From contig DASZWM010000003.1 in NCBI GenBank assembly GCA_035546615.1, forward strand, positions 32,001 to 96,000: a DNA stretch of 64,000 nucleotides. Reading direction: 5' to 3'. The first letter of the stretch is position 1. Every line of letters begins with the position of its first letter. A model generated the notes under the pieces. The model was not told the DNA's origin. It saw nothing but the letters and a program-made list of their open reading frames with translations, and made no database searches. Shown in pieces: positions 2,517 through 52,429 of the stretch. This DNA is from Minisyncoccota bacterium (lineage in GTDB: Bacteria; Patescibacteriota; Minisyncoccia; Phycocordibacterales; SBAW01). The translations under genes and the position numbers were made by a program.

Positions 2517-3077
2517 TTAGAACTGCACCTTCACCGGCTCGCGGGCGGCGGCCTCGTCGGCGCTCAGCTCGAAATATTCTTTTTGCTCGAAATGGAAGAC
2601 GCCGGCTATCACGTTGCCGGGGAACGACTGAAGGCCGGTGTTGAGGTCGCGCACGTTGCCGTTGTAGAAGCGGCGGGCCGCCTGGATCTTGTTCTCGGTG
2701 TCGGAAAGCTCTGTCTGGAGGCCGAGGAAATTCTGGTTCGCCTTGAGGTCCGGATACGCTTCCGCGACCGCAAAGAGCGACTTCAAAGCGCCGGACAGCA
2801 TATTCTCCGCCTGGCCCTTTTCCTCGGGCCCTTGCGCGCCCATCGCGGCAGCGCGCGCCTTCGTTACGTTCTCGAACGCCTCGCGCTCGTGCGTCGCGTA
2901 TCCTTTGACGGTCTCGACAAGATTCGGGATAAGGTCGTAGCGGCGCTTGAGCTGCACATCGATATCCGCCCATGCTTCCTTAACGCGCTGCACGAGCGTG
3001 ACGAAATGGTTGTACGAGACGATAACCCAGAACACGAGCACCGCAGCAGCTGCCAGCACTATATAGAGAGGTGTCAT
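2517..3077 (-). CDS. lemA: LemA family protein
   Basis: N-terminal TM helix followed by SYNHFVTLVQRVKEAWADIDVQLKRRYDLIPNLVETVKGYATHE, which is LemA-typical. The track start at 3095 is TTG; an ATG lies at 3077. Confidence 0.85.
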   Translation of the reverse strand: MTPLYIVLAAAAVLVFWVIVSYNHFVTLVQRVKEAWADIDVQLKRRYDLIPNLVETVKGYATHEREAFENVTKARAAAMGAQGPEEKGQAENMLSGALKSLFAVAEAYPDLKANQNFLGLQTELSDTENKIQAARRFYNGNVRDLNTGLQSFPGNVIAGVFHFEQKEYFELSADEAAAREPVKVQF

Positions 3078-3146
3078 ATGTATATGGTATCTCAAAAAGT
3101 ATGGATGTAAAGCATCAAAAAACCCCGCTGATGCGGGGTTTTTTGA

Positions 3147-4850
3147 TTAGTAGTCCATGTCGTCTCCGCCCATTCCTCCCATGCCTCCCTGCATGCCGGG
3201 GCTTCCCTTTTCTTCCTTCGGCTCCTCCGCTATCACCGCTTCGGTCGTCAACAGCATTGCCGCCGCGGATGCCGCGCGCTCCAGGCCCGTGCGCGCCACC
3301 TTGACCGGGTCAATGATGCCGGCCGCTATCATATCGGGCACCACTTCGTTCTTGACCGCGTCGTAGCCGGCGTTCCCGCTTGCCTCGCGCACCTTCTCCA
3401 CGACCACGCCCGGGTCCACGCCCGCGTTCATGGCTATCTGGCGGAGCGGCTGCTCAAGCGCCTTGATGATTATTTCGTAGCCCACGCGCTCTTCGTGGCT
3501 CATACTCGTGAGCGAAGACTCCACGACCGGCGCGATGGAGCCGCGGCGCGGCTTTATCTTGGCGAACCCTTCCACTACCTTTTGTGCCGCCTTCACGAGC
3601 GACGTGCCGCCGCCCGGAACGATACCCTCCTCAATGGCTGCCTTGGTCGCATTGACCGCGTCCTCGATCTTCAGCTTCAAATACTTCATTTCGGTCTCGG
3701 TCGCCGCGCCCACGCGGATGACAGCAACGCCGCCGGACAACTTTGCCAGGCGCTCGTTGAACTTCTCCTTGTCGAACTTGGAGTCGGTCGATTCTACCTG
3801 CGCGCGTATTTGCGCAATGCGCGCATCGATGTCTTTCTTGGCGCCCTTGCCGCCGACTATCACCGTCGAGTCCTTTGTTGCAATAACCTTGCCGGCCTTG
3901 CCAAGCATGCCAAGCGTCGCATTCTCGAACTTGACGCCGGTCTTCTCTGAAATCAGCTCGCCGCCGGTCATGATGGCGATGTCTTCGAGCATTTCCTGCT
4001 TGCGGTCGCCGTAGCCCGGCGCCTTTATCGCCAGCACGTTGAACGAGCCGCGCAGCTTGTTGAGGATAAATGTGGAGAGCGCTTCGCCGTCCACGTCGTC
4101 GGCCACGATGACCAAGTCCTTCTTGCCGGACTCCGCTACCTTCTGGAGTATCGGGAGCACTTCCTGCACGCTCGATATCTTTTTGTCGGTAATCAGTATC
4201 GGCGCGTCCTTATATACGGCTTCCATGCGGCTGGCGTCGGTCACCATGTAGGCGGACACGTAGCCGCGGTCGAACTCGAGGCCCTCTACGACCTCCTTTT
4301 CGATGCCGAGGCTCTGCGACTCTTCCACCGTCACTACGCCGTCCTTCCCCACTTCTTTAATAGTGTCGGCAATTATTGCGCCGATTTCCGCGGACTCCGC
4401 GGAAATGGTCGCGACCTGGCGTATCTCGTCGTCGTTTTGGATCTTCTTGGCAAGGCCGCGCAACGCGGCAACGGCATCGGCGGCAGCCTTCTCGATGCCG
4501 GCGCGCACGCCCATGGCATTCAGGCCCGCTTCCGTGTGCTTCATGCCTTCCTCGACTATCGCCTGAAGGAGCACGACGGAGGTCGTAGTGCCGTCGCCCG
4601 CGATGTCGTTGGTGCGGCTTGCCACTTCCTTCACTATCTCGGCGCCCATATTCTCGAACTTGTTGCTGAAAGATATCTCCTTGGCGATGGAAACGCCGTC
4701 GTTGGTGATGGTGGGGCTTCCGTAGCCCTTGTCCAGGGCGACGTTGCGGCCGCGGGGGCCGAGCGTTATCTTCACCGCGTTCGCGGCCTTGTCGATGCCT
4801 GCCTTCAGCGTCCGGCGCGCGCGCTCGTTAAAAAGGATTTGCTTTGCCAT
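3147..4850 (-). CDS. groL: Chaperonin GroEL (60 kDa)
   Basis: Full-length match to GroEL ([12 protein letters not shown], ...), C-terminal GGM repeats, and groES immediately upstream. Confidence 0.98.
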
Positions 4851-5616: not shown

Positions 5617-5774
5617 AGGTTCATCGGGGCAGGCCCCGAAACTGAGTAGGACGAGCTTCGCTCGCACTCCATAATATTGAACCCATATTCACGTCGCTCG
5701 CTCGGAAATAAAAATGAGGACATTCTTATTTCTCTCACTCGCTAGCGAATAGTCAGCAAATCTAATTTATATCT

Positions 5775-7547
5775 ATGCGTTCACTTTGGCGTACTCTCTC
5801 GAGACCCGTATATATCCCGCTTGCCGACAGGGCGGAGGACACCTATCGCGCCCTTTCCCGCACCGGGCGGGCCCTTTTCATACTCCTGGCCGGCGTCATG
5901 ATAGCCAGCTGCGCGGGGCTCCTGTATCTCCTTAACGACTCGCTCATTAGGCCCGTGCCGGCGTACGGCGGCAGCGTATCGGAAGGCATCGTCGGCAGCC
6001 CGCGCTTCGTAAACCCCGTGCTCGCCGTGTCCGACGCCGACCGCGACCTTTCCATACTCATCTATTCCGGCCTCCTGCGCGCAACGCCCGAAGGCCGGTA
6101 CGTGCCCGACCTTGCCGAAAGCTATACGCTGTCCGACGACGGCCTCACGTACACGTTCGCGCTGCGCGGCAATGCCACCTTCCACGACCGCACGCCGGTC
6201 ACCGCCGACGATGTCGTATTTACCGTCGGGAAGGCGCAGAACGCGGCGATAAAAAGCCCGCTTCGCGCCAATTGGAACGGCGTCACGGTGGAGGCCGTGG
6301 ACCCGCGCACCGTGCGCTTCACCCTGCGCCAGCGCTACGCGCCGTTCATCCACAACCTCACGCTCGGCATCCTCCCGAAGCACTTGTGGCAGAACGTGAG
6401 CGACGAGGAATTCCCCTTCAGCGACCTCAATACCAGCCCCGTAGGCTCGGGGCCTTTCATGGTCGGGAACATCTCGCGCACGCCTTCCGGCATTCCCTCA
6501 AGCTACGAGCTTGACTCGTTCAGGGGCTACGCGCTCGGCGCCCCGTTCCTTTCCTCCATCGTGCTCTCTTTCTATCAAAGCGAAAGCGCGCTCGCCGACG
6601 CGCTCAAGCAGGGCGACGTGGAGGCCGGCAGCGGCCTCTCCCCCGCCATGCTCTCCGACATCCCGGGAGCCAACATAGAGCGCTCCGCGCTTAACCGCGT
6701 GTTCGGCGTCTTCTTCAACCAGAACCAGTCGGAGGTGCTGCGCGATATCGACGTCCGCCGCGCGCTTGCCGACTCCGTCGACCAGGACCGCCTGGTGAAA
6801 GAGGTGCTGGACGGCTACGGCACACCGCTCAAGGGCCCCATACCGCCCGACATTCTCCCCGGCTCGGCCCCCGCAGCTACGGAAAGCCCGGCGACCACGA
6901 GCGCCGACGCGCCGGTTATTGCGGCGCAAGACAGGCTCACGGCCAAAGGCTGGGTCAAGAACGACGCCGGAATACTCCAGAAAACCGTCGGCAAGGGAAA
7001 GGACGCCAAGACGACCGCGCTCGCCTTCTCGCTTTCGACCGGCAACGTGCCGGAACTGCGCGCCGCCGCCGAGTACCTGCGCCGCCAGTGGGGGGCTCTC
7101 GGCGCGGACGTAGACGTGAAAGTGTTCGACCAGGGCGACCTGTCGCAGAACGTCATCCGCCCCCGCAAGTACGACGCGCTCCTCTTCGGCGAGGTCGTCG
7201 GCCGCGAGCTCGACCTGTTCGCGTTCTGGCACTCGAGCCAGCGCAACGACCCGGGCCTCAACGTGGCGGCGTACGCCAACTCGACCGCGGACAAGATACT
7301 TGAGGACCTGCGCCAGACGAGCAATGACCAGGAGCGCGAAAGCCTGTACGAAAAGTTCCTGGCCGAGCTCAACCGCGACGTTCCGGCGGTATTTCTCTAT
7401 GCGCCCGATTTCGTGTATAGTATCCCTAAAGACGTGCAAGGCCTTGATCTCGGCTTTATCGAGACTCCAAGCGACCGTTTCCTCTCCGCGCCCTACTGGC
7501 ACCGGGAAGTAGACTACGTGTGGCCGCTATTCAGCCGGGGCAAATAG
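5775..7547 (+). CDS. ABC transporter substrate-binding protein, family 5 (peptide/nickel type), membrane-anchored
   Basis: N-terminal TM anchor followed by a roughly 520-aa domain with SBP_bac_5-like motifs (YTFALRGNATFHD, LLFGEVVGRELDLFAFWHSSQ). Confidence 0.75.
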   Translation: MRSLWRTLSRPVYIPLADRAEDTYRALSRTGRALFILLAGVMIASCAGLLYLLNDSLIRPVPAYGGSVSEGIVGSPRFVNPVLAVSDADRDLSILIYSGLLRATPEGRYVPDLAESYTLSDDGLTYTFALRGNATFHDRTPVTADDVVFTVGKAQNAAIKSPLRANWNGVTVEAVDPRTVRFTLRQRYAPFIHNLTLGILPKHLWQNVSDEEFPFSDLNTSPVGSGPFMVGNISRTPSGIPSSYELDSFRGYALGAPFLSSIVLSFYQSESALADALKQGDVEAGSGLSPAMLSDIPGANIERSALNRVFGVFFNQNQSEVLRDIDVRRALADSVDQDRLVKEVLDGYGTPLKGPIPPDILPGSAPAATESPATTSADAPVIAAQDRLTAKGWVKNDAGILQKTVGKGKDAKTTALAFSLSTGNVPELRAAAEYLRRQWGALGADVDVKVFDQGDLSQNVIRPRKYDALLFGEVVGRELDLFAFWHSSQRNDPGLNVAAYANSTADKILEDLRQTSNDQERESLYEKFLAELNRDVPAVFLYAPDFVYSIPKDVQGLDLGFIETPSDRFLSAPYWHREVDYVWPLFSRGK

Positions 7548-16465: not shown

Positions 16466-16966
16466 CTAGCGCTGGTTCTCCTCCAGCAGGCGCTTGTCCT
16501 CTTCGGTCGGCTCCAAATCCAGGCATACCGAGTTCAGGCAATAGCGCTTGCCGGTCGCGGTAGGGCCGTCGTCAAACACGTGGCCCAGATGGCTGCCGCA
16601 GTTGGCGCACAATACCTCCGTGCGGTGCATGCCGTAGGCGTTATCGGCCTTAAACTCCACCGCGCCCGGAAGCGCCTGGTCGAACGACGGCCAGCCGGTG
16701 CCGGAGTCGAATTTCGCGCTGGAGGCGAAAAGCGGATTGTTGCACGCCGCGCAGCGGTACACGCCGTCGCGATCTTCGTGCAGGAGCTTGCCGGAGAACG
16801 GCGCCTCCGTCCCGCGCTCGCGCAATATCGCGTACTGCTCGGGCGTGAGCTTCTGCTTCCAGCCCTCCTCGTCGCGCGGCATGTCGTCGTGGTCGTGATG
16901 TGTATTGGAATTAGTCATAGGTTTTCTGTCGAATCGATAGGTATAAGTATACAAACTCCTACTCAT
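16466..16966 (-). CDS. msrB: Peptide-methionine (R)-S-oxide reductase MsrB
   Basis: SelR domain with CxxC...CxxC zinc site and catalytic RYCLNSVCL. An alternative ATG lies at 16918. Confidence 0.9.
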
Positions 16967-17657
16967 AGACTACTTCTGTTATCTCCGCGTGCGGGTTCGG
17001 TATGACGCACAGGACCTTTCCGGCTATCTTAAAGTCCTCGCGGAGCACTATCGGGCGGTACTTGGGGTTCTTGGATTCCGGATACAGTATCGTGACGCCG
17101 TTCTTCTTTTCGTAGCGCTTCACCGTCACCATATCGCCCACTATCGCCGCCACCCGGTCGCCGTTCTGCGCCTCGTCGGTAAAGCGGATAAGCACGTAGT
17201 CGCCCGGATTGATGCCCGCGTCCTGCATGGAGTCGCCTACCGCGCGCACCGCCACGATGCCGCCCTCTTCCCCCGCGCCGCGCGGAGCAACCTCCTCGCC
17301 GCGGTACGGCCCGTCGGCTATGGTCTTGTCCACTTCAAGGAATTCGTCGTACTGCTCCTGCGCAAAAAGGCTCAGGTCGTCGCAGCCGACGTTCGCCACC
17401 ACCGGCACGCTGACCGTCCGGTTGGGCATGCCGTCGGAATCGGCATTGCGCAGCTCTATGTTGCGGCGCGCGTGCTTGCGGCGGTAGATGTAGCCTTTTT
17501 CCTCCAGCGCCTCCAGATACTGCGTCACGGTGCGCAGCGACTTGAGTTTGAGGCTCGCCTTGAGCTCCTCCAGGGTCGGCGGCTCCTTGTGCTTGAGCAT
17601 GTAGGCCTCAAGCGTATCGAGCACGTGCTGCTGTTTAATTGTGAGTGCGTGCTGCAT
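16959..17657 (-). CDS. lexA: LexA repressor (S24 peptidase)
   Basis: N-terminal wHTH, Ala-Gly cleavage region VANVGCDD, and a GDSM...K catalytic dyad region. Confidence 0.95.
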
Positions 17658-17760
17658 ACCTACATACTAAACCAGGTCTTTTTTGTGTGCAATACACAAC
17701 ATACACAAGTTGGGGATAACCGGCGCGACAAGCGTGCACACAAGTCTTTAGGCTACAGAG

Positions 17761-18381
17761 ATGGCTATCGCCCGCACCGCAGACCAGGGGAAACTATTTG
17801 ACTTGCCGCTGTCGCTCCCCAACGGATTGGTCTACCGGCCGGATTTCCTGACGCCCGAGGAAGAAGAACTGTTGCTGGCGTACGTAGAGAATCTGCCGAT
17901 GGTGCACCCCACATTCGAAGAGCACGAGGCAAAACGGCGGCTTGCCGCGTTCGGCTGGAGCTACGACTTTGAGCGCGAAAAGCTTATCGAGGGCCCGCCG
18001 CTTCCGAAATTCCTGCATCCGGCGCAAAGGAAGATCGCCAAATGGCTCGGTATCTCCCCCGCCCGGGTGGTTGAGGCGCTGGTGCAGGAGTACACGCCGG
18101 GCTCGGCCATAGGCTGGCACCGCGACAACGAAAAGTTCGAATCTATCATCGGCATTTCGCTCGCGGGCTGGTGCAGGATGCGTTTCAGGCCCTTGGGCCT
18201 GAAACAATCAAGAAGTAGGCCGCTCGCAGCGAAAGATGTTGTGGCTCTGGAGCTCGAACCCCGCTCCTGCTACATCATGCAGAAGGACGTGCGGTGGAAG
18301 TGGCAGCATTCGGTGGCGCCCGTCAAAACCCTGCGCTATTCGATAACGTTCCGGACCCTGCCGGAGGGGTTTCGGCCCTAA
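17761..18381 (+). CDS. alkB: AlkB-like 2OG-Fe(II) oxygenase (alkylated DNA repair dioxygenase)
   Basis: IGWHRDNE (HxD) ... H ... RYSITFR motifs. It is divergent from lexA. Confidence 0.85.
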   Translation: MAIARTADQGKLFDLPLSLPNGLVYRPDFLTPEEEELLLAYVENLPMVHPTFEEHEAKRRLAAFGWSYDFEREKLIEGPPLPKFLHPAQRKIAKWLGISPARVVEALVQEYTPGSAIGWHRDNEKFESIIGISLAGWCRMRFRPLGLKQSRSRPLAAKDVVALELEPRSCYIMQKDVRWKWQHSVAPVKTLRYSITFRTLPEGFRP

Positions 18382-18482
18382 GCCCGGTTCATGCAGATAT
18401 CAGGCGGCTCTGTATATAGTTGCATGTGTGCCCAGGGTTCGGCGGCGTGCGGCGGCTATTACAAAAGTATTTACACTTTTAT

Positions 18483-18686
18483 ATGAAAGTCATACTTTCC
18501 TGCAGCGAGTGCGACTTCCAGGCGTGGGGTTCGGCCGAAGGGCGGCTCATGAACAAGATAGTCATGTGGAACCATGCCAAGCGCGCGCACGCCGACCAAG
18601 CCGACCTCGTGATGCAGACCTACGAAGAGCAGGCGCAGCCCAGCGACATCTACGAAACGCGCCGGATAATCCCTATTACCGCGTAA
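18483..18686 (+). CDS. DUF1059-like small metal-binding protein
   Basis: MKVILSCSECDFQAW...AHA pattern, recalled as DUF1059. The ATG lies inside the track ORF 18420..18686. Confidence 0.45.
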   Translation: MKVILSCSECDFQAWGSAEGRLMNKIVMWNHAKRAHADQADLVMQTYEEQAQPSDIYETRRIIPITA

Positions 18687-18695
18687 TTTTTCCTG

Positions 18696-19403
18696 CTACT
18701 CGAGCGTTATCGAGTTTATGACCATCGGCTCGACCGGACGGTCGCCCGGGCCCGTCGGCGCGCTTTCTATGGCCTTAACCACGTCCATGCCCGCGGTCAC
18801 CTTGCCGAAGGTGGTGTGCTTGTCGTCCAGGAAGTTGTTGGCCGCGGTATTGATGAAGAATTGCGAGCCGTTTGTATTAGGGCCGGCGTTGGCCATGGAG
18901 ATGGTGCCGATGTCGTTATGGTTGTTCGCGCGTATCTCATCGGCAAACTGGTAACCCGGGCCGCCGGTGCCCCAGCGCGCCGCCTGGCTGTCGTCCTTGG
19001 AAAGCGGGTCGCCGCCCTGGATCATAAAGCCCGGAATGACGCGGTGGAACTTGGTGCCGTTGTAAAAGCCCTCCCCCGCGAGCTTCGTGAAGTTGGCGAC
19101 GGTGTTGGGCGCGTCGGCGCTGAAGAACTCTATCGTAATGTCCCCCTTATTGGTGTGGAGTAGCGCGTGCATGACTGTGTGTGGATTAGCGCTGCTGGTA
19201 ACGTCTTGTGTCTGCTGTATCGCCTCGGGCGAGAGCTCCTGCGGCACTCCGCCCTGTCCGGTAGGCGGGGCGCTCGGGGCGCCTGTTGTCGAGTACGCGT
19301 CGGCCGCGGATGCGGGGGGCGCGGGCGGCCGGTTCATAAAGTACCAGCCCCCGAGGGCCATGACTAGCAGGAGCGGAAAAATGGTCAGTACCGTCTTATC
19401 CAT
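18696..19403 (-). CDS. ppiB: Peptidyl-prolyl cis-trans isomerase, cyclophilin type, membrane-anchored
   Basis: Cyclophilin motifs (FHRVIPGFMIQGGD, SMANAGPNTNGSQFFI) follow an N-terminal GGWYF anchor. Confidence 0.9.
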   Translation of the reverse strand: MDKTVLTIFPLLLVMALGGWYFMNRPPAPPASAADAYSTTGAPSAPPTGQGGVPQELSPEAIQQTQDVTSSANPHTVMHALLHTNKGDITIEFFSADAPNTVANFTKLAGEGFYNGTKFHRVIPGFMIQGGDPLSKDDSQAARWGTGGPGYQFADEIRANNHNDIGTISMANAGPNTNGSQFFINTAANNFLDDKHTTFGKVTAGMDVVKAIESAPTGPGDRPVEPMVINSITLE

Positions 19404-19656
19404 GCTTCTTCTTTCCCTTCTTTACTAACGCGAGCTTCTCCGTGCGGGAAAGCTGCTTGAGCCGGTACTCCTCGCGGGAGGCCACTGAGCGGTCGGCGAA
19501 CGGCTCGCTGTAGGACAGCCTGACCGGCCGGCGCGTGCGCGTGTATTTTGCGCCGAGGTCCGAGGAGTTGTGCTCGCTCATGCGGCGCTCAAGATCGGTC
19601 GCGATGCCGGTGTAGAGCGTGCCGTCAGCGCAGGTGACTATATACACGTGGTACAT
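19396..19656 (-). CDS. GIY-YIG nuclease superfamily protein (YhbQ/UPF0213-like)
   Basis: YHVYIVTCADGTLYTGIATDLERRMSEHN is a GIY-YIG signature. Confidence 0.85.
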   Translation of the reverse strand: MYHVYIVTCADGTLYTGIATDLERRMSEHNSSDLGAKYTRTRRPVRLSYSEPFADRSVASREEYRLKQLSRTEKLALVKKGKKKHG

Positions 19657-19661
19657 GGCGC

Positions 19662-19988
19662 CTAGGCGTGGTGGTGGTCGTGGCCGTGATTATGGTCATG
19701 CCCGTGCCCTCCGGAATTCTTGGAGAACAGGTCGCGCCAGTGGAGTTTCGCCACGAAGAAGAGGTAGATAAGCTCGAGGATGCCGAGCGTGTTGATGACG
19801 AGAAGGATGATAAACCACCAGTACTCGCCGCGCCGCGCCGAATGCCACAAGGCGAGCCCCTTGCCGATAATAGACCAGACGACGAACAAAAGCGCGAACG
19901 GCGCGAGCACCAGGAGCACGGCCGGAACCCAAAACGGCATATTGATAAACCAAGCGTTGTCCATACCCGCCCAATGATTCATATACAT
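19662..19988 (-). CDS. Membrane protein with C-terminal His-rich tail
   Basis: Two or three TM helices, ending GGHGHDHNHGHDHHHA. Confidence 0.5.
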   Translation of the reverse strand: MYMNHWAGMDNAWFINMPFWVPAVLLVLAPFALLFVVWSIIGKGLALWHSARRGEYWWFIILLVINTLGILELIYLFFVAKLHWRDLFSKNSGGHGHDHNHGHDHHHA

Positions 19989-21524: not shown

Positions 21525-21550
21525 GGCGAAGACTATATACGGTGTTTTAC

Positions 21551-21565
21551 GTTTTTGCAAAAAGC
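21551..21565. promoter_or_regulatory. Palindrome copy 2 (GTTTTTGCAAAAAGC) about 30 nt upstream of arsR ATG; candidate operator
   Basis: Seen directly. Confidence 0.5.
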
Positions 21566-21608
21566 TTTGATAAAAGGGCGGGGCGGGCGGGAACGAAAGG
21601 CTTTATCA

Positions 21609-21634
21609 CGGCTTTTTGCAAAAAGCTAAAATAA
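21609..21634. repeat. Palindrome copy 3 (GGCTTTTTGCAAAAAGCTAAAATA)
   Basis: Seen directly. Confidence 0.7.
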
Positions 21635-21647
21635 AAGAAATACATAA

Positions 21648-21671
21648 GGGAGGGAGGGAGGGAGGGAGGGA
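21648..21671 (+). repeat. (GGGA)x6 microsatellite / G-quadruplex-forming motif
   Basis: Seen directly. G3-N1 repeated six times. Confidence 0.9.
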
Positions 21672-21694
21672 GCCTTTACCTTTTTGCTTTTATT

Positions 21695-22105
21695 TTATCT
21701 GATGCGGATCCGGCGGAGGGCTTTGCGGGCTTTTTTGTAGTCCGGAATGGTCTCTTCGACCAGGGCCCAGAAGGCGGGGCTGTGGTTCATTTCCTTCAGG
21801 TGGCACAGCTCGTGGGTTACGACATATTCGGCCAGGCGCGGCGGCAAGAAAAGGAGGCGGTAGTTGAAGTTGAGGTTGCCGTGCTCCGAGCAGCTCCCCC
21901 ACCGCGAACGGCTGTTCTTTATGAATACCCGGCGCACGGCGTAGTCGTAGTGCGCGTTGAGGCGCGCGATGAGCGCATGGACAAGCGCGCGAGCCTCTTC
22001 CTTATACAGCTGGAACTTCCGCGAACTAGCCGCCGAAGCCGGGCGTCGTCTCCGTACCCGCCGCCGATATACGATTTTGTATCCAAACACCGAGGTATTG
22101 TACAA
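21695..22105 (-). CDS. YgjP-like metal-dependent hydrolase (DUF45/M48-like, HExxH)
   Basis: WGSCSEHGNLNFNYRLLFLPPRLAEYVVTHELCHLKEMNHSPAFW. TTG start, Arg-rich N-terminus. This is the last GC-rich gene before the island. Confidence 0.6.
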   Translation of the reverse strand: MYNTSVFGYKIVYRRRVRRRRPASAASSRKFQLYKEEARALVHALIARLNAHYDYAVRRVFIKNSRSRWGSCSEHGNLNFNYRLLFLPPRLAEYVVTHELCHLKEMNHSPAFWALVEETIPDYKKARKALRRIRIR

Positions 22106-22141
22106 CCTTACTTAATGGCAGGCTCAGATATAGATTTATAA

Positions 22142-22540
22142 CTACAAAATTGAGATAACTTTCTTAACGACGGAGTCTGAAGCACTCTTGAGTCGATGTT
22201 CCCATATTCTTAATACCTTCCAATTCATACTTTTTAATTGTTTATTAACCAATCTATCTCTTTTCTTATTTCTTTCTATTTTGTTAGTCCAATATGCGCG
22301 ATTTGTCTTTGGAACTCTACAGTGAGTCTTACATCCGTGCCAAAAACAAGAGTCAATGAAAATTGCTGTCTTAGAAACAGAAAAAACAATATCAGGTCTG
22401 CCTGGCAATTTTGCCACATGAGTTGTAAACTTTAGTTTACTTTTTTTCAGTTGCTTCTGAAAAGATTTTTCTATACCTGAATTTCTACTCTTAATGAGAC
22501 GCATTATTTCGCTGCGTCTTCCAGAAGATACATTGTCCAT
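22142..22540 (-). CDS. vsr: Very short patch repair endonuclease Vsr
   Basis: FIDSCFWHGC...P.TN..YW..KI..N..RD motifs. Confidence 0.9.
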   Translation of the reverse strand: MDNVSSGRRSEIMRLIKSRNSGIEKSFQKQLKKSKLKFTTHVAKLPGRPDIVFSVSKTAIFIDSCFWHGCKTHCRVPKTNRAYWTNKIERNKKRDRLVNKQLKSMNWKVLRIWEHRLKSASDSVVKKVISIL

Positions 22541-22544
22541 GCCT

Positions 22545-23612
22545 TTATTCTTCTATATCCCAACCTGTTGGAAGTGTGATTTTGGTATAGGCTCTTTCTT
22601 TGATAAAAGGGACAATCTCTGCGCTCGAAGGAAACTCTGCGTCAAATTCTCTCGTTAAATCACTTAACAAAGTGCCAGCAAGTCGTTCTCTATATTCTTT
22701 ACTGAGGCAAAGAGTATACCAGTCATGCAAATCTTTAAGAGTAATTATTCCTTGCACACGCTCAATAATCCCGAGCTGTTGTAGCAGGGCCTCAATAGGT
22801 TTCTTTTCTGCGTCTCGACAAACAATTACAATCCTGTCCGCTTCGATTCCCTCGACAATTCCTTCGGTTACTTCAGGAGTAAGTGTAAGGTGTTTTACCT
22901 GGATAGCTGTTCCAAAATTTGCCCACATATCTAATCCCCTATCCGCCGCATTCGTTACGCCAACTCTAAAAAGGGCTGCGGGCATAGCTACTTGAGTCTT
23001 TCTGGCATCTATGCCTAAAACCATTTTTATAAAACCTTCAAAATCAGTAAGTATTTCTTTGTCTTCATTTTTAATCGAAAGGGTGATTTCCGCTTTTAAT
23101 GCTCGTACAATAGCGGAAAAAAGAGCATGCACTGCTATTTCATATATTTTATCTGTGCTTCGTCTCAAGCCAGGACTTGATGTAAAAAGTTCCACTAATT
23201 CCATTATGGAAAAAGTGTCCACTGTTGACTGTTCGATATAGTCTCTTACCCGATGAACAGATAGTAACTTATTTTGTAAAGCTTTATAAATATAAGCCTC
23301 TACTCCGCCCTTACTTGTTGTATTTATTTTTCCTAACACTGCCAATAGTTGGGGCGGCATAGCATTAGGCTCAAAGATATTATCTTGGTACTTTGCGCTA
23401 GAAGTACTGCTCCTCCCAACAAGTAAGGTGGAGACTTCATCTCTCCAACGTTTAGAGACAGAGCGATAACTTTCTAGATCAGTTAGTTCTAGCTTTTTCT
23501 TAGTTCTATGATAGAAAAGTATCTCCGCTATCTGTATAGGTTTATAGAAGTGCACTCTGGCCTTCTTTATAACTGAATCCAGAGCCGCTTTTGCTTCTTC
23601 AGCCATTGACAT
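22545..23612 (-). CDS. Putative type II restriction endonuclease (family unassigned)
   Basis: The 355-aa ORF lies between the C5-MTase and vsr and overlaps the MTase stop by 14 nt. No family was identified by eye. Confidence 0.5.
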   Translation of the reverse strand: MSMAEEAKAALDSVIKKARVHFYKPIQIAEILFYHRTKKKLELTDLESYRSVSKRWRDEVSTLLVGRSSTSSAKYQDNIFEPNAMPPQLLAVLGKINTTSKGGVEAYIYKALQNKLLSVHRVRDYIEQSTVDTFSIMELVELFTSSPGLRRSTDKIYEIAVHALFSAIVRALKAEITLSIKNEDKEILTDFEGFIKMVLGIDARKTQVAMPAALFRVGVTNAADRGLDMWANFGTAIQVKHLTLTPEVTEGIVEGIEADRIVIVCRDAEKKPIEALLQQLGIIERVQGIITLKDLHDWYTLCLSKEYRERLAGTLLSDLTREFDAEFPSSAEIVPFIKERAYTKITLPTGWDIEE

Positions 23613-24621
23613 ACGCCCGTTCTACCATATTTATGTCTTTTCCGCTAAACAATTCAGTTTGTTCAATAAAAGGAACCGGGTCTTTCGACATTGCTTCAAC
23701 CATTGCGTGGGCCACTGCTTCCATCTGAGGAACCACTACAGCATTACCAGCTTGCTTCCGGATTTGCTGGTCAGCAACAACAAATTTATATGAATCGGGA
23801 AAACCCTGTAATCTAAACATCTCTCTAGGAGTCAGTCTTCTTTCTCCATTTACAATAAGATAGTTATATGAACCATTAGCCCTAAGAGCGCATGAATAAG
23901 CATTCACGCCTAGGTTTCCAGACTTATTTTCGTGCAAGATTAACGGACGAGAATGAAGTTCTTTGTGTTGTTCTTTTAATTGTCTCTGGACTTTCTGCAA
24001 CATATAATCGCTAAGAAAGTGTTTTTTATCGACCTCATTATCAGGCTCAAGGATGTCTTCAAGAGTTTTCTTTTTTCCCCTCCCTTTGGTAGGAAATTCA
24101 AAAGGGTAGTTTTCTCTAAAACCTACAATCATTATTCGCTCTCTCTTTTGCGGAACGCCAAAATCTAGACCATTTAAAACTTTAAAGTGCACAAAATAAC
24201 CTAGTTTTCTTAAACTATTTAGAATTACTGAAAACGTCCTTCCTTGATCATGATTGGTAAGTTGTTTTACATTTTCCAAAAATAGAGCTTTTGGTTTCTT
24301 TGCCTTTAGAATTCTCTCAACATCAAAAAACAACGTGCCTCTTGTTTCAGAGAAACCTTTCATATTCCCCATGATGCTAAAAGCTTGGCATGGAAAACCG
24401 CCTGTCAAAATATCATGGTCAGGCACATCTTTTGCAACTATTTTCGTTATATCTCCATCTGGCTGGTCGCCGAAATGATTCTTATACATCTTCTGCGCAG
24501 CTTCATCCCATTCTGATGTAAAAACACATTTACCTCCTGCCGCTTCAAAACCAAGTCTAATGCCTCCAATTCCTGCAAAGAGATCGATAAAAGTAAATTT
24601 ATTCTTATTCGTTGGAGCCAT
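23599..24621 (-). CDS. dcm: DNA (cytosine-5)-methyltransferase
   Basis: Motif I FIDLFAGIGG, motif IV GGFPCQAFS, motif VI ENV, motif VIII QRRERI-like. Confidence 0.95.
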   Translation of the reverse strand: MAPTNKNKFTFIDLFAGIGGIRLGFEAAGGKCVFTSEWDEAAQKMYKNHFGDQPDGDITKIVAKDVPDHDILTGGFPCQAFSIMGNMKGFSETRGTLFFDVERILKAKKPKALFLENVKQLTNHDQGRTFSVILNSLRKLGYFVHFKVLNGLDFGVPQKRERIMIVGFRENYPFEFPTKGRGKKKTLEDILEPDNEVDKKHFLSDYMLQKVQRQLKEQHKELHSRPLILHENKSGNLGVNAYSCALRANGSYNYLIVNGERRLTPREMFRLQGFPDSYKFVVADQQIRKQAGNAVVVPQMEAVAHAMVEAMSKDPVPFIEQTELFSGKDINMVERAYVNG

Positions 24622-24851
24622 AGAGCAATATATTTTAACACCTATTTTAAGCTTGCTATATTTTTAATAATAGCACTGAAATCTATATTTATACACAATA
24701 TACACAAGTCTTGGGGATAACTTTAGTGAGGGCCGTTTTTGGTCCAGGATAGCCGTATCCGCCAGCCGATAAAAATAGAGTAAGGGGGTAAAGATCAGCA
24801 ATCGTGGGATGAGCGTGTCTAATAGTCACCTAAGGATTTATAGCCATAAGG

Positions 24852-25193
24852 CTATTGTGGCAAACCCTTAATTTTGTTTCTGAAGAAATTAAATCGCATC
24901 TTAGCATAGTCCCAAAGAAAAGAGCAGAACGACTTATTTGGATGTCTTTTTATTTCACGCAAGTTCTCGAAAGCATAATTAAGTATATCTATAAATAATA
25001 ACCCTGGTACAACACCCAATGCGAATATATACCAATCAGAAAAACGTGTTTTTAACAAACTGTAAGTCGCATTTACTGCAATTCCAAGAACTACCGCAAG
25101 CGTCGCACCGAGTATCACAAATGCCCACTGTATTTGTAGACTTCTTTCCTCTTGTAAATCACCCTTGTTCATGGCGAATATATCTAATAACAA
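24852..25193 (-). CDS. Small two-TM membrane protein (candidate effector of the Ubl/E1 module)
   Basis: Two hydrophobic helices (WAFVILGATLAVVLGIAV; WYIFALGVVPGLLFIDIL). TTG at 25193 or ATG at 25172. It lies 8 nt after the upstream stop. Confidence 0.5.
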   Translation of the reverse strand: MLLDIFAMNKGDLQEERSLQIQWAFVILGATLAVVLGIAVNATYSLLKTRFSDWYIFALGVVPGLLFIDILNYAFENLREIKRHPNKSFCSFLWDYAKMRFNFFRNKIKGLPQ

Positions 25194-25201
25194 GTAAAAA
25201 A

Positions 25202-25612
25202 TTATTCGAAGAAGCTACGCAATTGGACTAATATCCAGTTTCCAAATCGTCGCCACCATGACAGGGAGGAATGAATAAAGTATGCATCCTTGATGGTATC
25301 GTCATATTCTCGCCCGTGGCGTATCTGTTCTCGAGTCATCTTCGACGCCCAAATCACTTGATTTTCAATAATCCAATAATGTGACTGACAAGGATGATTC
25401 CAGTTTCCTATTGAAGGACGTAGCGAGACCACCCCCTGCCAATCAACTAGCGTATATTCGGTCTTACGGAGAGGGGTAACGATTTTAGTGCCACAACTGC
25501 AACAGCACAAATGGCTCGCGGTTCCGAAACGTCGTGAGATATATAGAACACCACTCTCAAGCTCTCTTGGTATGAACTCAACATATTCAGGACGCACCAA
25601 CTCTGTCTTCAT
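25202..25612 (-). CDS. Cys-rich Zn-ribbon-like protein (DUF6527-like, recalled)
   Basis: HLCCCSCGTK...NHPCQSH cluster. The ATG at 25612 overlaps the E1-like gene stop (ATGA-type coupling). Confidence 0.5.
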   Translation of the reverse strand: MKTELVRPEYVEFIPRELESGVLYISRRFGTASHLCCCSCGTKIVTPLRKTEYTLVDWQGVVSLRPSIGNWNHPCQSHYWIIENQVIWASKMTREQIRHGREYDDTIKDAYFIHSSLSWWRRFGNWILVQLRSFFE

Positions 25613-26808
25613 ATACAATCCTCTTTTGTAAGGGCGTGGGTCGCAATCGTGTACAGCGAATGACGTTCTCGCACATCATCAGCATAAAAACCACACAATT
25701 GCTTCCATTTTCCCACAGCCATGGCAGCATTTAGCATATTTAGGTCCGCAACCTGCATATTACGGTACACCGCCTCGGCCGGCACTTTTGCAAATGAAAC
25801 AACTTCCGCAATATGTCCATGATGGTCGGGTGTTCCAACTGTAAAGCGACACTGTCCGCGCAGAGACGCCTGATTATCGAGTGCCAAGTCTATTCCAACG
25901 TCTATGAACGGCACACCAAGAGCAATAAGGCCATTAAGTATGTTCTTCCGGCTCTCTCCGTCGTCGATAGCAACAAACACGAAGTCGAACCCGGACAGCT
26001 CGTGGAGATGCGCGTCCTGGACATAGTAGGGATGACGCTTCAAGCCCTTGTGTATACGTTCGTATATACCACTGAACCAATCCACTTTTAGTGGATTGTT
26101 AAGCTCCTGCTTCATCGGAGCACCCGGTGCTCTAAACGCGTTGTGGAGTTCGAACGTATCCCCATCGAAAATGTGGATTTCTTTCACCGGCGTCTTAGCA
26201 ACAAGGTCGAGAATATACGAACCAGTACCACCTAGTCCTATAATCGCCACCCGACTTGCAAGGAGTTTCGCCGTGGCCGCTCCAATACCAGCACGGGTTG
26301 TTGCCATATCAGGATAATGGAATGCGAGTTCCTGAGCTTCGACTACCGCCGGTACTGGTTTTTCACTTCGTGGATCGCAAGTCCGATCAATTGCTTGAGC
26401 TTCGTGCCAAATCAGACGAACATATGTCCAGATTTTTTCGTAGTAGTCGGCATACTTGCGCTTATCAGCGTGCACACGCGAGAAGGCGACAGTCGTCTTA
26501 ATCCCATCGCCCTTATCCTCCTCAGCGTTGTTCGAAATCATCTCCGTCATTAGTTGACCATCCGCGTTGTGCGGGGGTTCTCCAATCCACCAACACTGAT
26601 GGTTGGAACATGGATTCACTGTCTTTCCGGCCGCATCAATTTCAAGTGGGCAATAGAGAATTCCAGGCACTATTTTGCCTTCAGAGGTAACAGCAGGAAT
26701 TCCCTCAATTAAAAGATGAGAGGCAGTCCCTTGAATGACCCGGAGACGAAAACCTTCCGCCTCCAACTTTGCCAAATCGGCATTATGACTTATCCGTATT
26801 TCTGACAT
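25609..26808 (-). CDS. E1-like ThiF/MoeB-fold enzyme with ~165-aa N-terminal domain of unknown fold
   Basis: VAIIGLGGTGSYILDLVAKTPVKEIHIFDGDTFELHNAFR is a ThiF nucleotide-binding motif. The N-terminal domain has conserved-looking C/H residues (YCPLE, NPCSNHQCWW, PPHN). Confidence 0.8.
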   Translation of the reverse strand: MSEIRISHNADLAKLEAEGFRLRVIQGTASHLLIEGIPAVTSEGKIVPGILYCPLEIDAAGKTVNPCSNHQCWWIGEPPHNADGQLMTEMISNNAEEDKGDGIKTTVAFSRVHADKRKYADYYEKIWTYVRLIWHEAQAIDRTCDPRSEKPVPAVVEAQELAFHYPDMATTRAGIGAATAKLLASRVAIIGLGGTGSYILDLVAKTPVKEIHIFDGDTFELHNAFRAPGAPMKQELNNPLKVDWFSGIYERIHKGLKRHPYYVQDAHLHELSGFDFVFVAIDDGESRKNILNGLIALGVPFIDVGIDLALDNQASLRGQCRFTVGTPDHHGHIAEVVSFAKVPAEAVYRNMQVADLNMLNAAMAVGKWKQLCGFYADDVRERHSLYTIATHALTKEDCI

Positions 26809-27040
26809 CGAAGTTCATATGATCGACCACATCTACACTTTGGCCCCGGCGAAGCGATCCTTCGTGTCCACCTGGCTTAGTCCATGAAACGCTGTAGCGA
26901 ACATCGCCTCCGAACGGACCAGTTGGGAATGCGAGCTTGATGACTTGCTCGTAGCTAATATCGTGTTCACCCCACTTCTCTTGAATACCGTTCACAACAA
27001 TGCTTATGGTGTGTCCATGCCCTTTATTATCGTCTGCCAT
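26783..27040 (-). CDS. Multiubiquitin-like beta-grasp protein (85 aa, no C-terminal GG)
   Basis: ISIVVNG...ISYEQVIKLAFP...RYSVSW...GQSVDVVDHMNFDVR matches, from memory, the multiubiquitin domain pattern of prokaryotic E1/E2 operons. It overlaps the E1-like gene start by 26 nt. Confidence 0.5.
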   Translation of the reverse strand: MADDNKGHGHTISIVVNGIQEKWGEHDISYEQVIKLAFPTGPFGGDVRYSVSWTKPGGHEGSLRRGQSVDVVDHMNFDVRNTDKS

Positions 27041-27224
27041 ATAATTTTAATTGTCGGCTTTTTAATTTAAGTGCGGCACCGGTCGACCGCACTTGTATCG
27101 TACACCCATTTCTGATACCCTTGCAAGGTAACTAGATGTATCAAATGTTACCTAAAGTACCATATTTGTTATATCTGATACCTGTTGTTACAACCTATAA
27201 CAAGTTACGCACAGATTTCAAATC

Positions 27225-27584
27225 ATGAGAAAATCATCCGCTACAATAAACAATGAAAGCAGATCCACAGAGCTTGAAATCCGGAAAGAGATTGGCAGAC
27301 GTATCGCTGAAATGCGTAGCAAACTGGGGCTTACAGCTCGCCTTGTTGCCAAAGAACTTCATGTCTCACGCGAAGCCATTACTCACATTGAAACAGGGCG
27401 AAACAATATATCTGCCGTATCGCTGTGGGAATTGGCGACTCTCTTCCATTGTGATATTGCTGATTTTTTCCCTGATATTCCTAATGGATATTCTTTAACT
27501 AGGGTCGATATTAATAAAGTAGCACAAATGAGTGGAAAGACAGGGGCGGCATGGGCTGAAAAGATTTTTGGGAAAAAGAAATAA
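27225..27584 (+). CDS. XRE-family HTH transcriptional regulator (CapH/ImmR-like)
   Basis: HTH_3 signature IGRRIAEMRSKLGLTARLVAKELHVSREAITHIETGRNNIS. Confidence 0.85.
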   Translation: MRKSSATINNESRSTELEIRKEIGRRIAEMRSKLGLTARLVAKELHVSREAITHIETGRNNISAVSLWELATLFHCDIADFFPDIPNGYSLTRVDINKVAQMSGKTGAAWAEKIFGKKK

Positions 27585-27588
27585 ATAT

Positions 27589-28083
27589 ATGATGTCAGAA
27601 AGAATTGAGAAAAAAGCGGAGGAAGTCTTAAGCGCACTGAATGTTAAGTCAATACCTATCTCTGTTGAAGAAATCGCGAATCAATTAAAGATCAAGATAG
27701 GAAGAGCACCTAGTAGTGAATTTTCTGGAATGTTGATTCGAAAAGATGGTCGAGCACTTATGGGTATAAATAACAGTGAAGGCACTGCGAGACAACGATT
27801 CACTATTGCGCATGAACTTGGGCATTATTTCTTACATCCACAAAATGATACTTTTGTAGACTATAGGCAGAACGAAAAAGAACCAAGAAATCATAGAGAA
27901 CGAGAGGCTGATATGTTTGCAGCAGCACTCTTAATGCCTAGGAAAGAAGTAACAAAAGACTTTCAGAAAATTGTTAGGAAAGGATTTTCAGAAATTGAAC
28001 TTCACAAACTGGCAGGAAAATATGAAGTGAGCGACAAAGCAATGAGATTTAGGTTAGTAAACTTAAATATGCTATTAGGTTAA
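27589..28083 (+). CDS. ImmA/IrrE family Zn-metallopeptidase (CapP/ImmA-like)
   Basis: HELGHYFLH HExxH motif in the COG2856 fold context. It lies immediately downstream of the XRE gene. Confidence 0.85.
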   Translation: MMSERIEKKAEEVLSALNVKSIPISVEEIANQLKIKIGRAPSSEFSGMLIRKDGRALMGINNSEGTARQRFTIAHELGHYFLHPQNDTFVDYRQNEKEPRNHREREADMFAAALLMPRKEVTKDFQKIVRKGFSEIELHKLAGKYEVSDKAMRFRLVNLNMLLG

Positions 28084-28087
28084 GATT

Positions 28088-28348
28088 TTATTGTCTACTC
28101 CCTTGTGATCCTAATCTATCCGTAAAAGGTCCCTCACGATGGGCCGCCGGATCTACATCCTTTTTTGTAATAACCTGGGGAAAGCGGGTATTTTCTTCAA
28201 TCTGCTCTAGTAACGTGACTATTCTGTTCAATTTCCAGTACCAGGTAAGGATTTCCCTGATCAGGAGGAATATCAGAGCGCCCACGCATAGGACAAAAAC
28301 GATATTTGGTAGCTGGGACCAGTAATATTGAAATAAGGGTTGAAGCAT
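28088..28348 (-). CDS. Small membrane protein (one TM helix), downstream partner of AbrB-like gene
   Basis: IVFVLCVGALIFLLI helix. Coordinates are from the track. Confidence 0.4.
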   Translation of the reverse strand: MLQPLFQYYWSQLPNIVFVLCVGALIFLLIREILTWYWKLNRIVTLLEQIEENTRFPQVITKKDVDPAAHREGPFTDRLGSQGSRQ

Positions 28349-28351
28349 ATA

Positions 28352-28540
28352 TTACTTCTTCCAGTCGCGGATTATCAGCTTCTTTCTCTTCAGATCCACC
28401 TCTACGGTGAGCTTTTGGCGCTCTTTCCACTTGAACTTGCGGATAGCCTCCACCGGAAGCGCGACCGTATAGGTACTTCCCCGCCCCGTCTTGGTGAGCT
28501 TGCGGACCTGCTTTTTCTGCCCCGCCTTCGGCCGTGCCAT
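28352..28540 (-). CDS. AbrB/MazE/SpoVT-like small DNA-binding protein (candidate antitoxin)
   Basis: VRKLTKTGRGSTYTVALPVEAIRKFKWKERQKLTVEV resembles the looped-hinge helix fold. Confidence 0.45.
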   Translation of the reverse strand: MARPKAGQKKQVRKLTKTGRGSTYTVALPVEAIRKFKWKERQKLTVEVDLKRKKLIIRDWKK

Positions 28541-28600
28541 GCGGATATGATACCACCGAACTCCTGAGCTAACTCAAGAGTTAGCTCAGGAGTTAATTAA

Positions 28601-28627
28601 AAACCGGCGCCTGGGGCGCCGGTTTGG
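28601..28627. terminator. Bidirectional intrinsic terminator at the island's right edge
   Basis: AAAAACCGGCGCC-TGGG-GCGCCGGTTT. Confidence 0.6.
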
Positions 28628-28642
28628 CCAAGGTTGGCCGGA

Positions 28643-28918
28643 TTACTGAAGCGTGGGGCTGGAGCGGGTCTCGCTTATAGCCCAGTTGCCGTACAGGGTA
28701 TCGAGCTCGAGCTTGAGCTGCACGACCCGCTCGACCATCCCGACGTCTACGACGCGGAGATTAATCATAAAGGCCTCGGCATTGCGTATCGCCGCTTTGA
28801 TCTCCTTCTTCTTCGCGATGATCTCGGGCGGGAGCCGCCGCTTCCCGCTGTGGAAATCTCCGGCAAGCCGGATCATTGTCCGCGCCTCGTCGGGAGTAAG
28901 TACCCGATACTGATCCAA
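28643..28918 (-). CDS. Hypothetical protein
   Basis: A 91-aa ORF with protein-like composition in a GC-rich context. Confidence 0.4.
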   Translation of the reverse strand: MDQYRVLTPDEARTMIRLAGDFHSGKRRLPPEIIAKKKEIKAAIRNAEAFMINLRVVDVGMVERVVQLKLELDTLYGNWAISETRSSPTLQ

Positions 28919-50974: not shown

Positions 50975-51244
50975 GCAAAAAGTATAGCACCGAGTTTTGC
51001 ATTCGGGTTCCCTGCGAATAGTCCGGCTTCGTCACCCTGTTCCTCAGCTGCCAGACTTGAGATAGAACCGGTCGCGGGTACGGTGTCCAGATTTGCTGCG
51101 GGTGTAGGAATGTCACTTGTGTATTTTTTGTGGCTTAAAATATAGGGCTCGGTTTCTATTTTAGTTCGAATCTCAGGGGGGTCAAAGAAAAAGCCGCCCG
51201 ACGAACTGAGCCGTCGGGGGCTTTGTTCGCGGGCGGTCGCTGCT

Positions 51245-51724: not shown

Positions 51725-51756
51725 GTCAGTTACTCCTTCTGTCTATATTGTTGAAC

Positions 51757-52410: not shown

Positions 52411-52429
52411 TTGTCGCTTTATGCGCAAA

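Follow-up and report, generated by a model that had tools for sequence, protein, structure and literature searches.

A probable foreign defense islet joining a HaeII-type restriction-modification operon to a Type II Bub operon in a Minisyncoccota genome

Type II Bub operons, formerly catalogued as 6E.2 or DUF6527 systems, encode BubA, BubBD, and BubE (a DUF6527 serine protease) and no JAB peptidase (PMC11601596). A CapH-CapP regulator pair adjoins 31% of the 544 catalogued Bub operons, and the biological role of these operons is not yet established (PMC11601596). In CapH-CapP of the cyclic oligonucleotide-based antiphage signaling systems (CBASS) of Escherichia coli MS115-1 and Thauera sp. K11, as in ImmR-ImmA of the integrative and conjugative element (ICE) ICEBs1, a helix-turn-helix (HTH) repressor and an M78 metallopeptidase with an HExxH motif are encoded upstream and divergently. 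Canonical CapP consists of a peptidase, an HTH-like linker, and, at the C terminus, a GAF domain; the linker and GAF domain form the groove for binding of single-stranded DNA (ssDNA) in CapP and IrrE, and a cysteine-switch loop is found in 33% of CBASS CapPs. Counterparts of these systems were examined here in a 64,000-nt window (the whole stretch of DNA that was analyzed; positions 32,001 to 96,000 of contig DASZWM010000003.1, GenBank assembly GCA_035546615.1) from the metagenome-assembled genome (MAG) of a Minisyncoccota bacterium. Formerly called Parcubacteria, the Minisyncoccota (Candidatus Paceibacterota) belong to the candidate phyla radiation (CPR). Positions 22106 to 28351 of the window are, with good confidence, a foreign defense islet set between two native genes and made up of a restriction-modification (R-M) system, a Type II Bub operon with its regulators, and two orphan open reading frames (ORFs). 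All of the functional parts can be assigned to families already described (HaeII-type R-M with Vsr, Type II Bub, and a short, ImmA-like regulator of the CapH/CapP type), here in an unusual host phylum.

The window as a whole had a GC content of 57.5%. In 500-nt windows, GC content fell from between 0.52 and 0.64 to between 0.36 and 0.43 immediately to the right of the YgjP-like gene (22105/22106) and remained below 0.50 until about 28250. Positions 22106 to 28630, which the initial annotation of this DNA had outlined as an abrupt AT-rich island, had a GC content of 0.417, compared with 0.593 in the remaining window. GC content at third codon positions (GC3) ranged from 0.29 to 0.48 in island genes and from 0.73 to 0.83 in eleven native neighbors, with a lower value (0.65) in a MarR/ArsR-like gene. 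Among the island genes, GC3 was 0.30 to 0.34 in the genes for Vsr, the restriction endonuclease (REase), and the methyltransferase (MTase) and in the orphan ORF after bubE, 0.45 to 0.48 in the three Bub genes, 0.29 to 0.35 in the HTH and M78 pair, and 0.45 in an 86-aa ORF. Over 3-kb windows, the correlation of the tetranucleotide z-profile with that of the remaining window was 0.15 to 0.25 in the block and 0.68 ± 0.10 outside it, and the tetranucleotide frequency distance was 0.046 to 0.060 in the block and 0.016 ± 0.003 outside it, a difference of more than 10 standard deviations. The abrupt island starting at about 22106 was thus confirmed by strong deviations in GC, GC3, and tetranucleotide composition, and the uniform k-mer composition that would have spoken against it was not seen.

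Composition had been described as recovering after a hairpin at about 28601 to 28627. The recovery was instead located at about 28349 to 28351, because the 62-aa gene at 28352 to 28540 already has a native GC3; the foreign block therefore spans 22106 to 28351 (6.2 kb). A 6,868-bp Logan contig (L001; run SRR12170516), which is an independent assembly, was 100% identical to window positions 21761 to 28628 across both junctions and ended in 345 bp and 278 bp of DNA with host composition, so the junctions are not an assembly artifact. The flanking 62-aa and YgjP-like genes are co-directional and both intact, and the islet lies exactly in the intergenic gap.

In the initial annotation, a ubiquitin-like/E1 module and an HTH-peptidase pair were listed as separate items. 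Their gene families were borne out, but their separateness was not: together they make up a single unit of a known kind, namely, a Type II Bub operon and its CapH/CapP-type regulators. Neither BubE nor the DUF6791 domain (E2-like) that is fused to the E1 nor the membrane ORF at 24852 to 25193 had been singled out there. The overlapping genes follow the order bubA-bubBD-bubE, and no JAB/JAMM domain was found in any ORF of the island (Pfam and PADLOC). Gene order, the E2-E1 fusion, and the lack of a JAB peptidase are shared with BubA-BubBD-BubE of E. coli ZDHYS365 (PMC11601596), as are the E2 serine, the adenylation arginine, and the crossover-loop tyrosine of BubBD and the cysteine cluster, Ser-His dyad, and hydrophobic tail of BubE. 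A divergent HTH and M78 pair is attached, as in the 31% of Bub operons noted above. The islet differs from the E. coli operon in its CPR host, in the orphan membrane ORF that follows bubE, and in its short, GAF-less regulator peptidase. E. coli BubA has three beta-grasp domains, whereas the islet BubA is minimal, with a single beta-grasp domain in 85 aa and a -TDKS end. No DNA-level match to the Bub genes was found in E. coli genomes.

In BubBD, residues S110, K125, and H70 of the E2 domain, R226 for adenylation, and Y348 in the crossover loop were invariant among 23 homologues of 60 to 81% identity. S110, R226, and Y348 lie near residues S106, R219, and Y342, which were mutated in E. coli BubBD (PMC11601596), in an alignment made by number and not by sequence. 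In BubE, C38, C40, C42, C77, S69, and H80 were invariant in six homologues, including one that was 42% identical, with Citrobacter numbering mapped only approximately. The AlphaFold2 model of BubBD had a mean predicted local distance difference test score of 79.7, and its best PDB matches were Citrobacter BubCD structures 9ea4 and 9ea5 (E of about 1e-9; 1.1e-9 for 9ea4) over the E1 part. An E2-like layout would suit the N-terminal part of the model, in which a helix is followed by four strands and further helices. The BubBD protein deposited at NCBI (P0001) has 388 aa, 11 residues fewer than the 399-aa ORF; because homologues conserve the N terminus from residue 1 (MSxxxIS), the deposited start is probably too far downstream.

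By analogy with published Bub biochemistry, BubBD would adenylate the C terminus of BubA, which would pass through oxyesters on Tyr348 of the E1 crossover loop and then on Ser110 of the E2 domain. BubA would subsequently be joined to target proteins, and BubE would take it off again by means of Ser69 and His80.

The islet pair shares with CapH-CapP and ImmR-ImmA its place upstream of, and opposite to, the operon that it would regulate. The M78 peptidase aligned with positions 3 to 153 of the 242 positions in the capP profile. Its best sequence match in the PDB was CapP 7t5t (E = 3.1e-7), and only the peptidase part, residues 57 to 155 of the 291-aa chain, was covered. CapP of CBASS has about 290 aa with HTH-like and GAF domains, whereas the islet peptidase has 164 aa and is alike in size to ImmA (about 169 aa). 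The HTH protein was 63 to 65% identical to the products of HTH genes beside Bub in three comparison loci (L090, L093, and L094). The control region between bubA and the HTH gene was conserved in L090 and also in L093 and L094, two loci with Bub genes of only about 40% identity, with DNA homology starting at 27084; this conservation fits an operator-promoter function for positions 27041 to 27224. By analogy with CapH/CapP biochemistry, the HTH repressor would keep bubA-bubBD-bubE off until a stress signal activates the M78 peptidase, which would lead to cleavage of the repressor.

Relatives of BubBD were numerous at 60 to 81% identity, and those at 69 to 81% occurred in unrelated hosts, for example, in Bradyrhizobium and on a metagenomic contig with 61% GC. 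Bradyrhizobium proteins were 70 to 72% identical, and a copy on a 620-kb Bradyrhizobium plasmid and another on one IMG/VR contig were each 69% identical; no match to BubBD was found among 50,697 phage records. Metagenomic contig L090 has the same five-gene layout (BubE, 62.5% identity; BubBD, 75%; BubA, 66%; HTH, 63%; M78, 64%), with DNA homology that is continuous over window positions 25356 to 27939. Because all five genes recur there in the same layout and with continuous DNA homology, they are one inherited unit, and the layout was also found on the Bradyrhizobium plasmid. In L093 and L094, a Bub operon with only about 40% identity to that of the window is combined with the same HTH and M78 cassette and its control region (window positions 27084 to 27941; about 65% protein and 68% DNA identity), which indicates that the regulator cassette recombines between Bub subtypes at the intergenic region.

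The neighbors of the Bub unit were different in every other genome examined, and from these comparisons the modules appear to be mobile and mosaic in origin. The neighbors included Abi_C in L083; a 1,356-aa protein and IS66 in L085; GmrSD with an EcoRI-type methyltransferase in L093 and L094; a large serine recombinase 1.7 kb away in L084 (positions 5749 to 7464 of that locus); and, in L090, a ParB-N6 methyltransferase and a large serine recombinase 3.4 kb away (positions 2966 to 4282 of that locus). The recombinases of L084 and L090 (Resolvase, Recombinase, and Zn_ribbon_recom domains) adjoin the two Bub units that are most similar to that of the window among the long contexts. Their proximity hints at a possible vehicle that moves Bub units in other hosts. 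Neither a HaeII-type R-M system nor either of the orphan ORFs was found beside the Bub unit in the related Bub loci examined.

Vsr, REase, and C5-MTase genes, as the initial annotation had named them, were supported by profile matches (Table 1), and they form a tight operon in the order M-R-Vsr, with the MTase and REase genes overlapping by 14 nt. A full-length RE_HaeII domain, an adjacent C5-MTase gene, and vsr in one operon are shared with R-M systems of the HaeII/NgoAI type. The islet system differs in having no controller protein and in being only 45 to 47% identical to the named members, so that its recognition site is presumed; the REase relatives at this identity belong to the HaeII family and come from plasmids of Acinetobacter and from Neisseria gonorrhoeae. 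No carrier of the REase was found among viral contigs. From what is known of these families, the MTase would mark host DNA, probably at RGCGCY, the HaeII-type nuclease would cut unmethylated incoming DNA, and Vsr would repair T:G mismatches arising from deamination of 5-methylcytosine, thereby offsetting the mutagenic cost of that base. RGCGCY sites were not avoided in host DNA (196 observed versus 188 expected). Among other 6-bp palindromes in the window minus the island, ACATGT was observed 0 times (3.7 expected) and ACCGGT 4 times (11 expected); the counts are small, and the scarcity could reflect other R-M pressures.

The presence of foreign DNA with defense and regulatory genes, as first proposed, agreed with the composition, the tetranucleotide signature, and the BubBD relatives in unrelated hosts, which at 69 to 81% identity contrast with the remote relatives of the host's own flanking genes (55% at best for the YgjP-like gene in species-representative genomes). 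The island had been thought possibly old, which fits poorly with unameliorated GC3, with genes that are all intact, and with the RGCGCY counts. The arrival was probably recent, because GC3 is 0.29 to 0.48 in a host with a GC3 of about 0.78, the genes are intact, and RGCGCY is not avoided; all three are weak clocks that point in this direction. The absence of an integrase, transposase, or tRNA at the boundaries was upheld by domain scans and a tRNA scan of the window: the island genes and ten flanking ORFs (Pfam; about 1.8 kb to the left and 3.5 kb to the right) gave no hit to an integrase or transposase domain, and no tRNA gene lies within 20 kb of the islet, the nearest being at 910 to 996 and 52430 to 52501. 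Logan gene calls further to the left were GIY-YIG, peptidyl-prolyl isomerase, 2OG-Fe(II) oxygenase, and LexA-like genes. A search for direct repeats at the two edges, which had been proposed as a check, found none of ≥8 nt common to both junction regions. Positions 22184 and 28572 share a palindromic match of 10 nt, which was set aside as being at chance level. The atypical composition and defense cargo are shared with classical tRNA-targeted genomic or defense islands, but the islet has no integrase, tRNA target, or direct repeats and is only 6.2 kb long, tightly placed between two intact genes. It thus lies outside the definition of a classical integrative island and is a small defense islet.

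Several routes to this arrangement were weighed. Entry without an integrase, in which taken-up DNA was placed by illegitimate or homology-facilitated recombination, possibly stepwise as defense genes were stacked at a permissive intergenic spot, is a plausible but tentative account. It agrees with the failure to find a recombinase, tRNA, or repeats, with an exactly intergenic insertion that damaged neither flanking gene, with modules that are independently mobile and have new neighbors at every locus, and with the heterogeneous GC3. No relatives show intermediate states, however, and GC3 is also heterogeneous within the co-inherited unit, which means that GC3 classes cannot be used to count insertion events; on this ground they were rejected as evidence for three separate insertions. 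That a single integrative element (for example, one with a large serine recombinase) brought the whole 6.2 kb and later lost its recombinase gene is possible but doubtful. The large serine recombinases close to two of the nearest Bub relatives and the IMG/VR contig that carries a Bub operon would suit such an element, and the absence of both direct repeats and a tRNA target would be compatible with it, since a serine recombinase leaves no more than a 2-bp crossover. The spacers (36, 230, 184, and 3 bp), on the other hand, are too small for a recombinase remnant, intact native genes closely adjoin both junctions, neither the R-M genes nor the orphan ORFs turned up beside the Bub unit in the related loci examined, and a GC3 without amelioration speaks against the long history that clean gene loss would take.

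A degraded prophage or ICE remnant, in which the HTH and M78 genes would be the immunity switch of the element itself (ImmR/ImmA type) and not regulators of Bub, is very unlikely. ImmR/ImmA is known to control mobile elements, the peptidase is ImmA-sized and GAF-less, and PHROG matches to phage repressors and metalloproteases were obtained; yet Pfam and PHROG searches of the island detected neither phage nor conjugation genes, BubBD was unmatched in the phage records, and in L090, L093, and L094 the closest HTH and M78 homologues (63 to 66%) stand divergently beside Bub and share a conserved control region with it. Least credible of all is a chimera of assembly or binning. The genome is indeed metagenome assembled, and Logan contigs break near the island (21761 and 28628), but L001 crosses both junctions with host-composition ends, the Logan contigs of this sample are short everywhere (L002, 3.1 kb; L096, 3.0 kb), and the break at 28624 to 28628 falls in a GC-rich terminator hairpin, away from the junction.

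The reading of the block as a recently gained foreign defense islet also has points that weigh against it. Its acquisition is inferred, and public data include no close relative of the host in which an empty site could be seen. The best match to the host YgjP-like gene in 185,579 species-representative genomes was 55% identical, and each flanking protein that could be looked up was a singleton when about 15 billion proteins were clustered at 90%. No synteny across the site was found through the YgjP-like protein in 80 genome loci (best, 55% identical) or through a 197-aa protein of the right flank, whose metagenome relatives were ≤45% identical and none of them syntenic; exact-protein look-ups of flanking genes returned the same sample only. 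GC3 differs within the co-inherited unit (0.45 to 0.48 in Bub genes and 0.29 to 0.35 in regulators). HaeII-like specificity is assumed at an identity of only 45 to 47%. A role in defense is assigned to the Bub part by association only, and no Bub operon gave phage protection in E. coli (PMC11601596). The M78 peptidase has no GAF domain, no HTH-like linker, and no cysteine at all (hence no cysteine switch), so the canonical ssDNA-sensing mechanism may not apply to this short form. Finally, BubA ends in -TDKS with no C-terminal glycine, whereas an exposed C-terminal glycine has been shown for Type I BubA. This end was invariant in all seven BubA sequences compared (window, L083, L084, L085, L090, L093, and L095), one of which was only 39% identical overall, and it would imply either an E1 that acts on a terminal serine or processing of the tail.

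A broader proposal is improbable: that the short, GAF-less, cysteine-free M78 peptidase found with Bub (window, L090, L093, and L094) could form a sensor class of its own, which would turn on ubiquitin-like conjugation through a trigger other than ssDNA in a peptidase-GAF groove; that its occurrence in an episymbiotic CPR bacterium with a small genome, following entry without an integrase, would then make Bub a broadly portable stress or defense module; and that -TDKS may entail adenylation of a terminal serine in place of glycine. The foreign defense islet leaves current concepts unchanged and holds fairly ordinary horizontally acquired defense genes. It would represent cross-phylum flow of a Bub operon with a stress-responsive regulator cassette into a CPR bacterium, beside a classical R-M system, and the clean, scar-free insertion between intact genes is a tidy case of defense-gene gain with no visible recombinase. 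A minimal Bub system (85-aa ubiquitin-like protein and 164-aa peptidase) in a reduced genome could be convenient for biochemistry. Points of possible further interest are the GAF-less peptidase, the -TDKS end of BubA, and the scar-free insertion.

Table 1. Coordinates of the islet features and of the adjoining native features in the window
Feature	Position	Strand	GC3	Evidence and remarks
YgjP-like metallopeptidase, short form, 136 aa	21695..22105	-	0.766	Pfam YgjP-like, E 6.7e-39; native left flank, outside the islet
Left junction	22106..22141	.		36-bp spacer from YgjP start codon to Vsr stop codon; composition switch
Vsr very-short-patch repair endonuclease	22142..22540	-	0.301	Pfam Vsr, E 6.6e-18; PADLOC Vsr, E 1.5e-22
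HaeII-family type II restriction endonuclease	22545..23612	-	0.312	Pfam RE_HaeII, E 3.7e-127, full length
C5 cytosine DNA methyltransferase	23599..24621	-	0.308	Pfam DNA_methylase, E 8.3e-98; PADLOC MTase_II, E 2.1e-120
AT-rich spacer upstream of MTase gene, 230 bp	24622..24851	.		No ORF; no match to other loci; presumed R-M promoter
Orphan two-helix membrane ORF	24852..25193	-	0.342	113 aa from TTG, 106 aa from ATG 25172 (NCBI, Logan); 8 nt downstream of bubE
BubE (DUF6527), Ser-His peptidase	25202..25618	-	0.45-0.48 (Bub genes)	Pfam DUF6527, E 1.8e-18; zinc-binding Cys cluster; hydrophobic C-terminal tail; likely start ATG 25612
BubBD, E2-like (DUF6791) and E1 (ThiF) fusion, 399 aa	25609..26808	-	0.45-0.48 (Bub genes)	DUF6791, residues 10-167, E 1.1e-30; ThiF, residues 178-315, E 7.8e-14
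BubA, single beta-grasp ubiquitin-like protein, 85 aa	26783..27040	-	0.45-0.48 (Bub genes)	Pfam Multi_ubiq, residues 13-82, E 4.1e-12; ends -NTDKS
Divergent control region bubA/capH-like, 184 bp	27041..27224	.		Conserved blocks with TCTGATACC and GTAAC/GTTAC as repeated motifs; candidate operator for CapH, and promoters
CapH-like XRE-family HTH repressor, 119 aa	27225..27584	+	0.29-0.35 (pair)	Pfam HTH_3, E 4.2e-10; PADLOC capH, E 3.5e-5
CapP-like (ImmA-sized) M78 metallopeptidase, 164 aa	27589..28083	+	0.29-0.35 (pair)	Pfam Peptidase_M78, E 4.3e-23; PADLOC capP, E 4.8e-38; HELGH at residues 75-79; NCBI-called P0122
Orphan 86-aa ORF	28088..28348	-	0.448	One predicted membrane helix; foreign composition; gene status uncertain
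Right junction	28349..28351	.	0.448 to 0.778	3-nt gap from foreign ORF start to native gene stop
62-aa basic protein	28352..28540	-	0.778	GC 0.561; NCBI hypothetical protein VHD55_01425; native right flank, outside the islet
Palindrome, perfect 17-nt arms, 2-nt spacer	28559..28594	.		Arms 28559-28575 and 28578-28594; RNA fold z -6.8; no U-tract
Intrinsic terminator of native 91-aa gene (28643-28918)	28603..28627	-		11-bp stem, 3-nt loop, then UUUUU

The interval had been said to hold only genes of defense or regulation type (Table 1). The families named were borne out, but two orphan ORFs have no convincing family, and the gene labeled AbrB-like, which encodes the 62-aa protein, belongs to the host flank according to its GC3. 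The AbrB label found no support in Pfam, NCBIfam, PHROG, or PDB sequence searches, and a homologue of the protein (43.5% identical) was found in MAG locus L021. For the membrane ORF at 24852 to 25193, no match was found in Pfam, PADLOC, PHROG, or NCBIfam, and only the ORF itself was recovered among 5.8 billion protein clusters. It was missing beside Bub in L083, L084, L085, L090, and L093 and was therefore rejected as a conserved Bub component. The 86-aa ORF matched no family except for a marginal PADLOC hit to Csx27 (E = 0.008).

The inverted repeat reported near the right edge is present, but its size (10 bp) and position (about 28556 to 28578) were not sustained: it is longer and lies in the host flank, in DNA of native composition 19 bp upstream of the ATG of the 62-aa gene. 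The L021 homologue of this gene is likewise preceded by a perfect palindrome (10 bp), which lies 11 bp upstream of the ATG, and for this reason the repeat is most likely the operator of the native 62-aa gene. A role as an island border or att site was discarded, since a native gene lies between the palindrome and the junction, the palindrome occurs once in the window, and the L021 gene has a counterpart. The hairpin terminator of the initial annotation ends the native 91-aa gene, with its U5 tract on the minus strand; a 52-nt segment composed of the stem and a short upstream hairpin had a minimum free energy of -28.7 kcal/mol (z = -5.0).

At the left flank, clipping of the YgjP-like gene by the insertion was ruled out by equally short forms in other CPR genomes (L028 and L071). 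The short form (116 to 172 aa) recurs in several CPR genomes (window, L003, L004, L013, L028, and L071) and is without an N-terminal beta-rich region of roughly 50 to 70 aa; the usual proteins have 175 to 240 aa. In the gap between the MarR/ArsR-like and YgjP-like genes (21545 to 21675), a duplicated TTTTTGCAAAAAGCT motif underlies an imperfect inverted repeat of 30 nt (87%), which is a likely operator for the MarR/ArsR-like regulator; a (GGGA)6 run comes after it, at about 21650 to 21675. Host genes encoding LexA-like (LexA_DNA_bind and Peptidase_S24), AlkB-like (2OG-Fe(II) oxygenase), and GIY-YIG proteins were located at 16679 to 19778 (L002), about 3 to 5 kb to the left of the island, which suggests that the host has its own DNA-damage regulon beside the HTH/M78 switch of the island.

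Far to the right of the islet, partial copies of the tRNA-Gln gene surround the intact gene (52430 to 52501) at 52358 to 52406 (two pieces, 100% and 96%), 52571 to 52593 (83%), and 52222 to 52237 (94%). They lie in a 700-bp noncoding stretch of lower GC content and may derive from past integration at this tRNA or from a tRNA array that has decayed. Low tetranucleotide correlations (0.28 to 0.33) were also seen in the 3-kb windows at 50001 to 54000.

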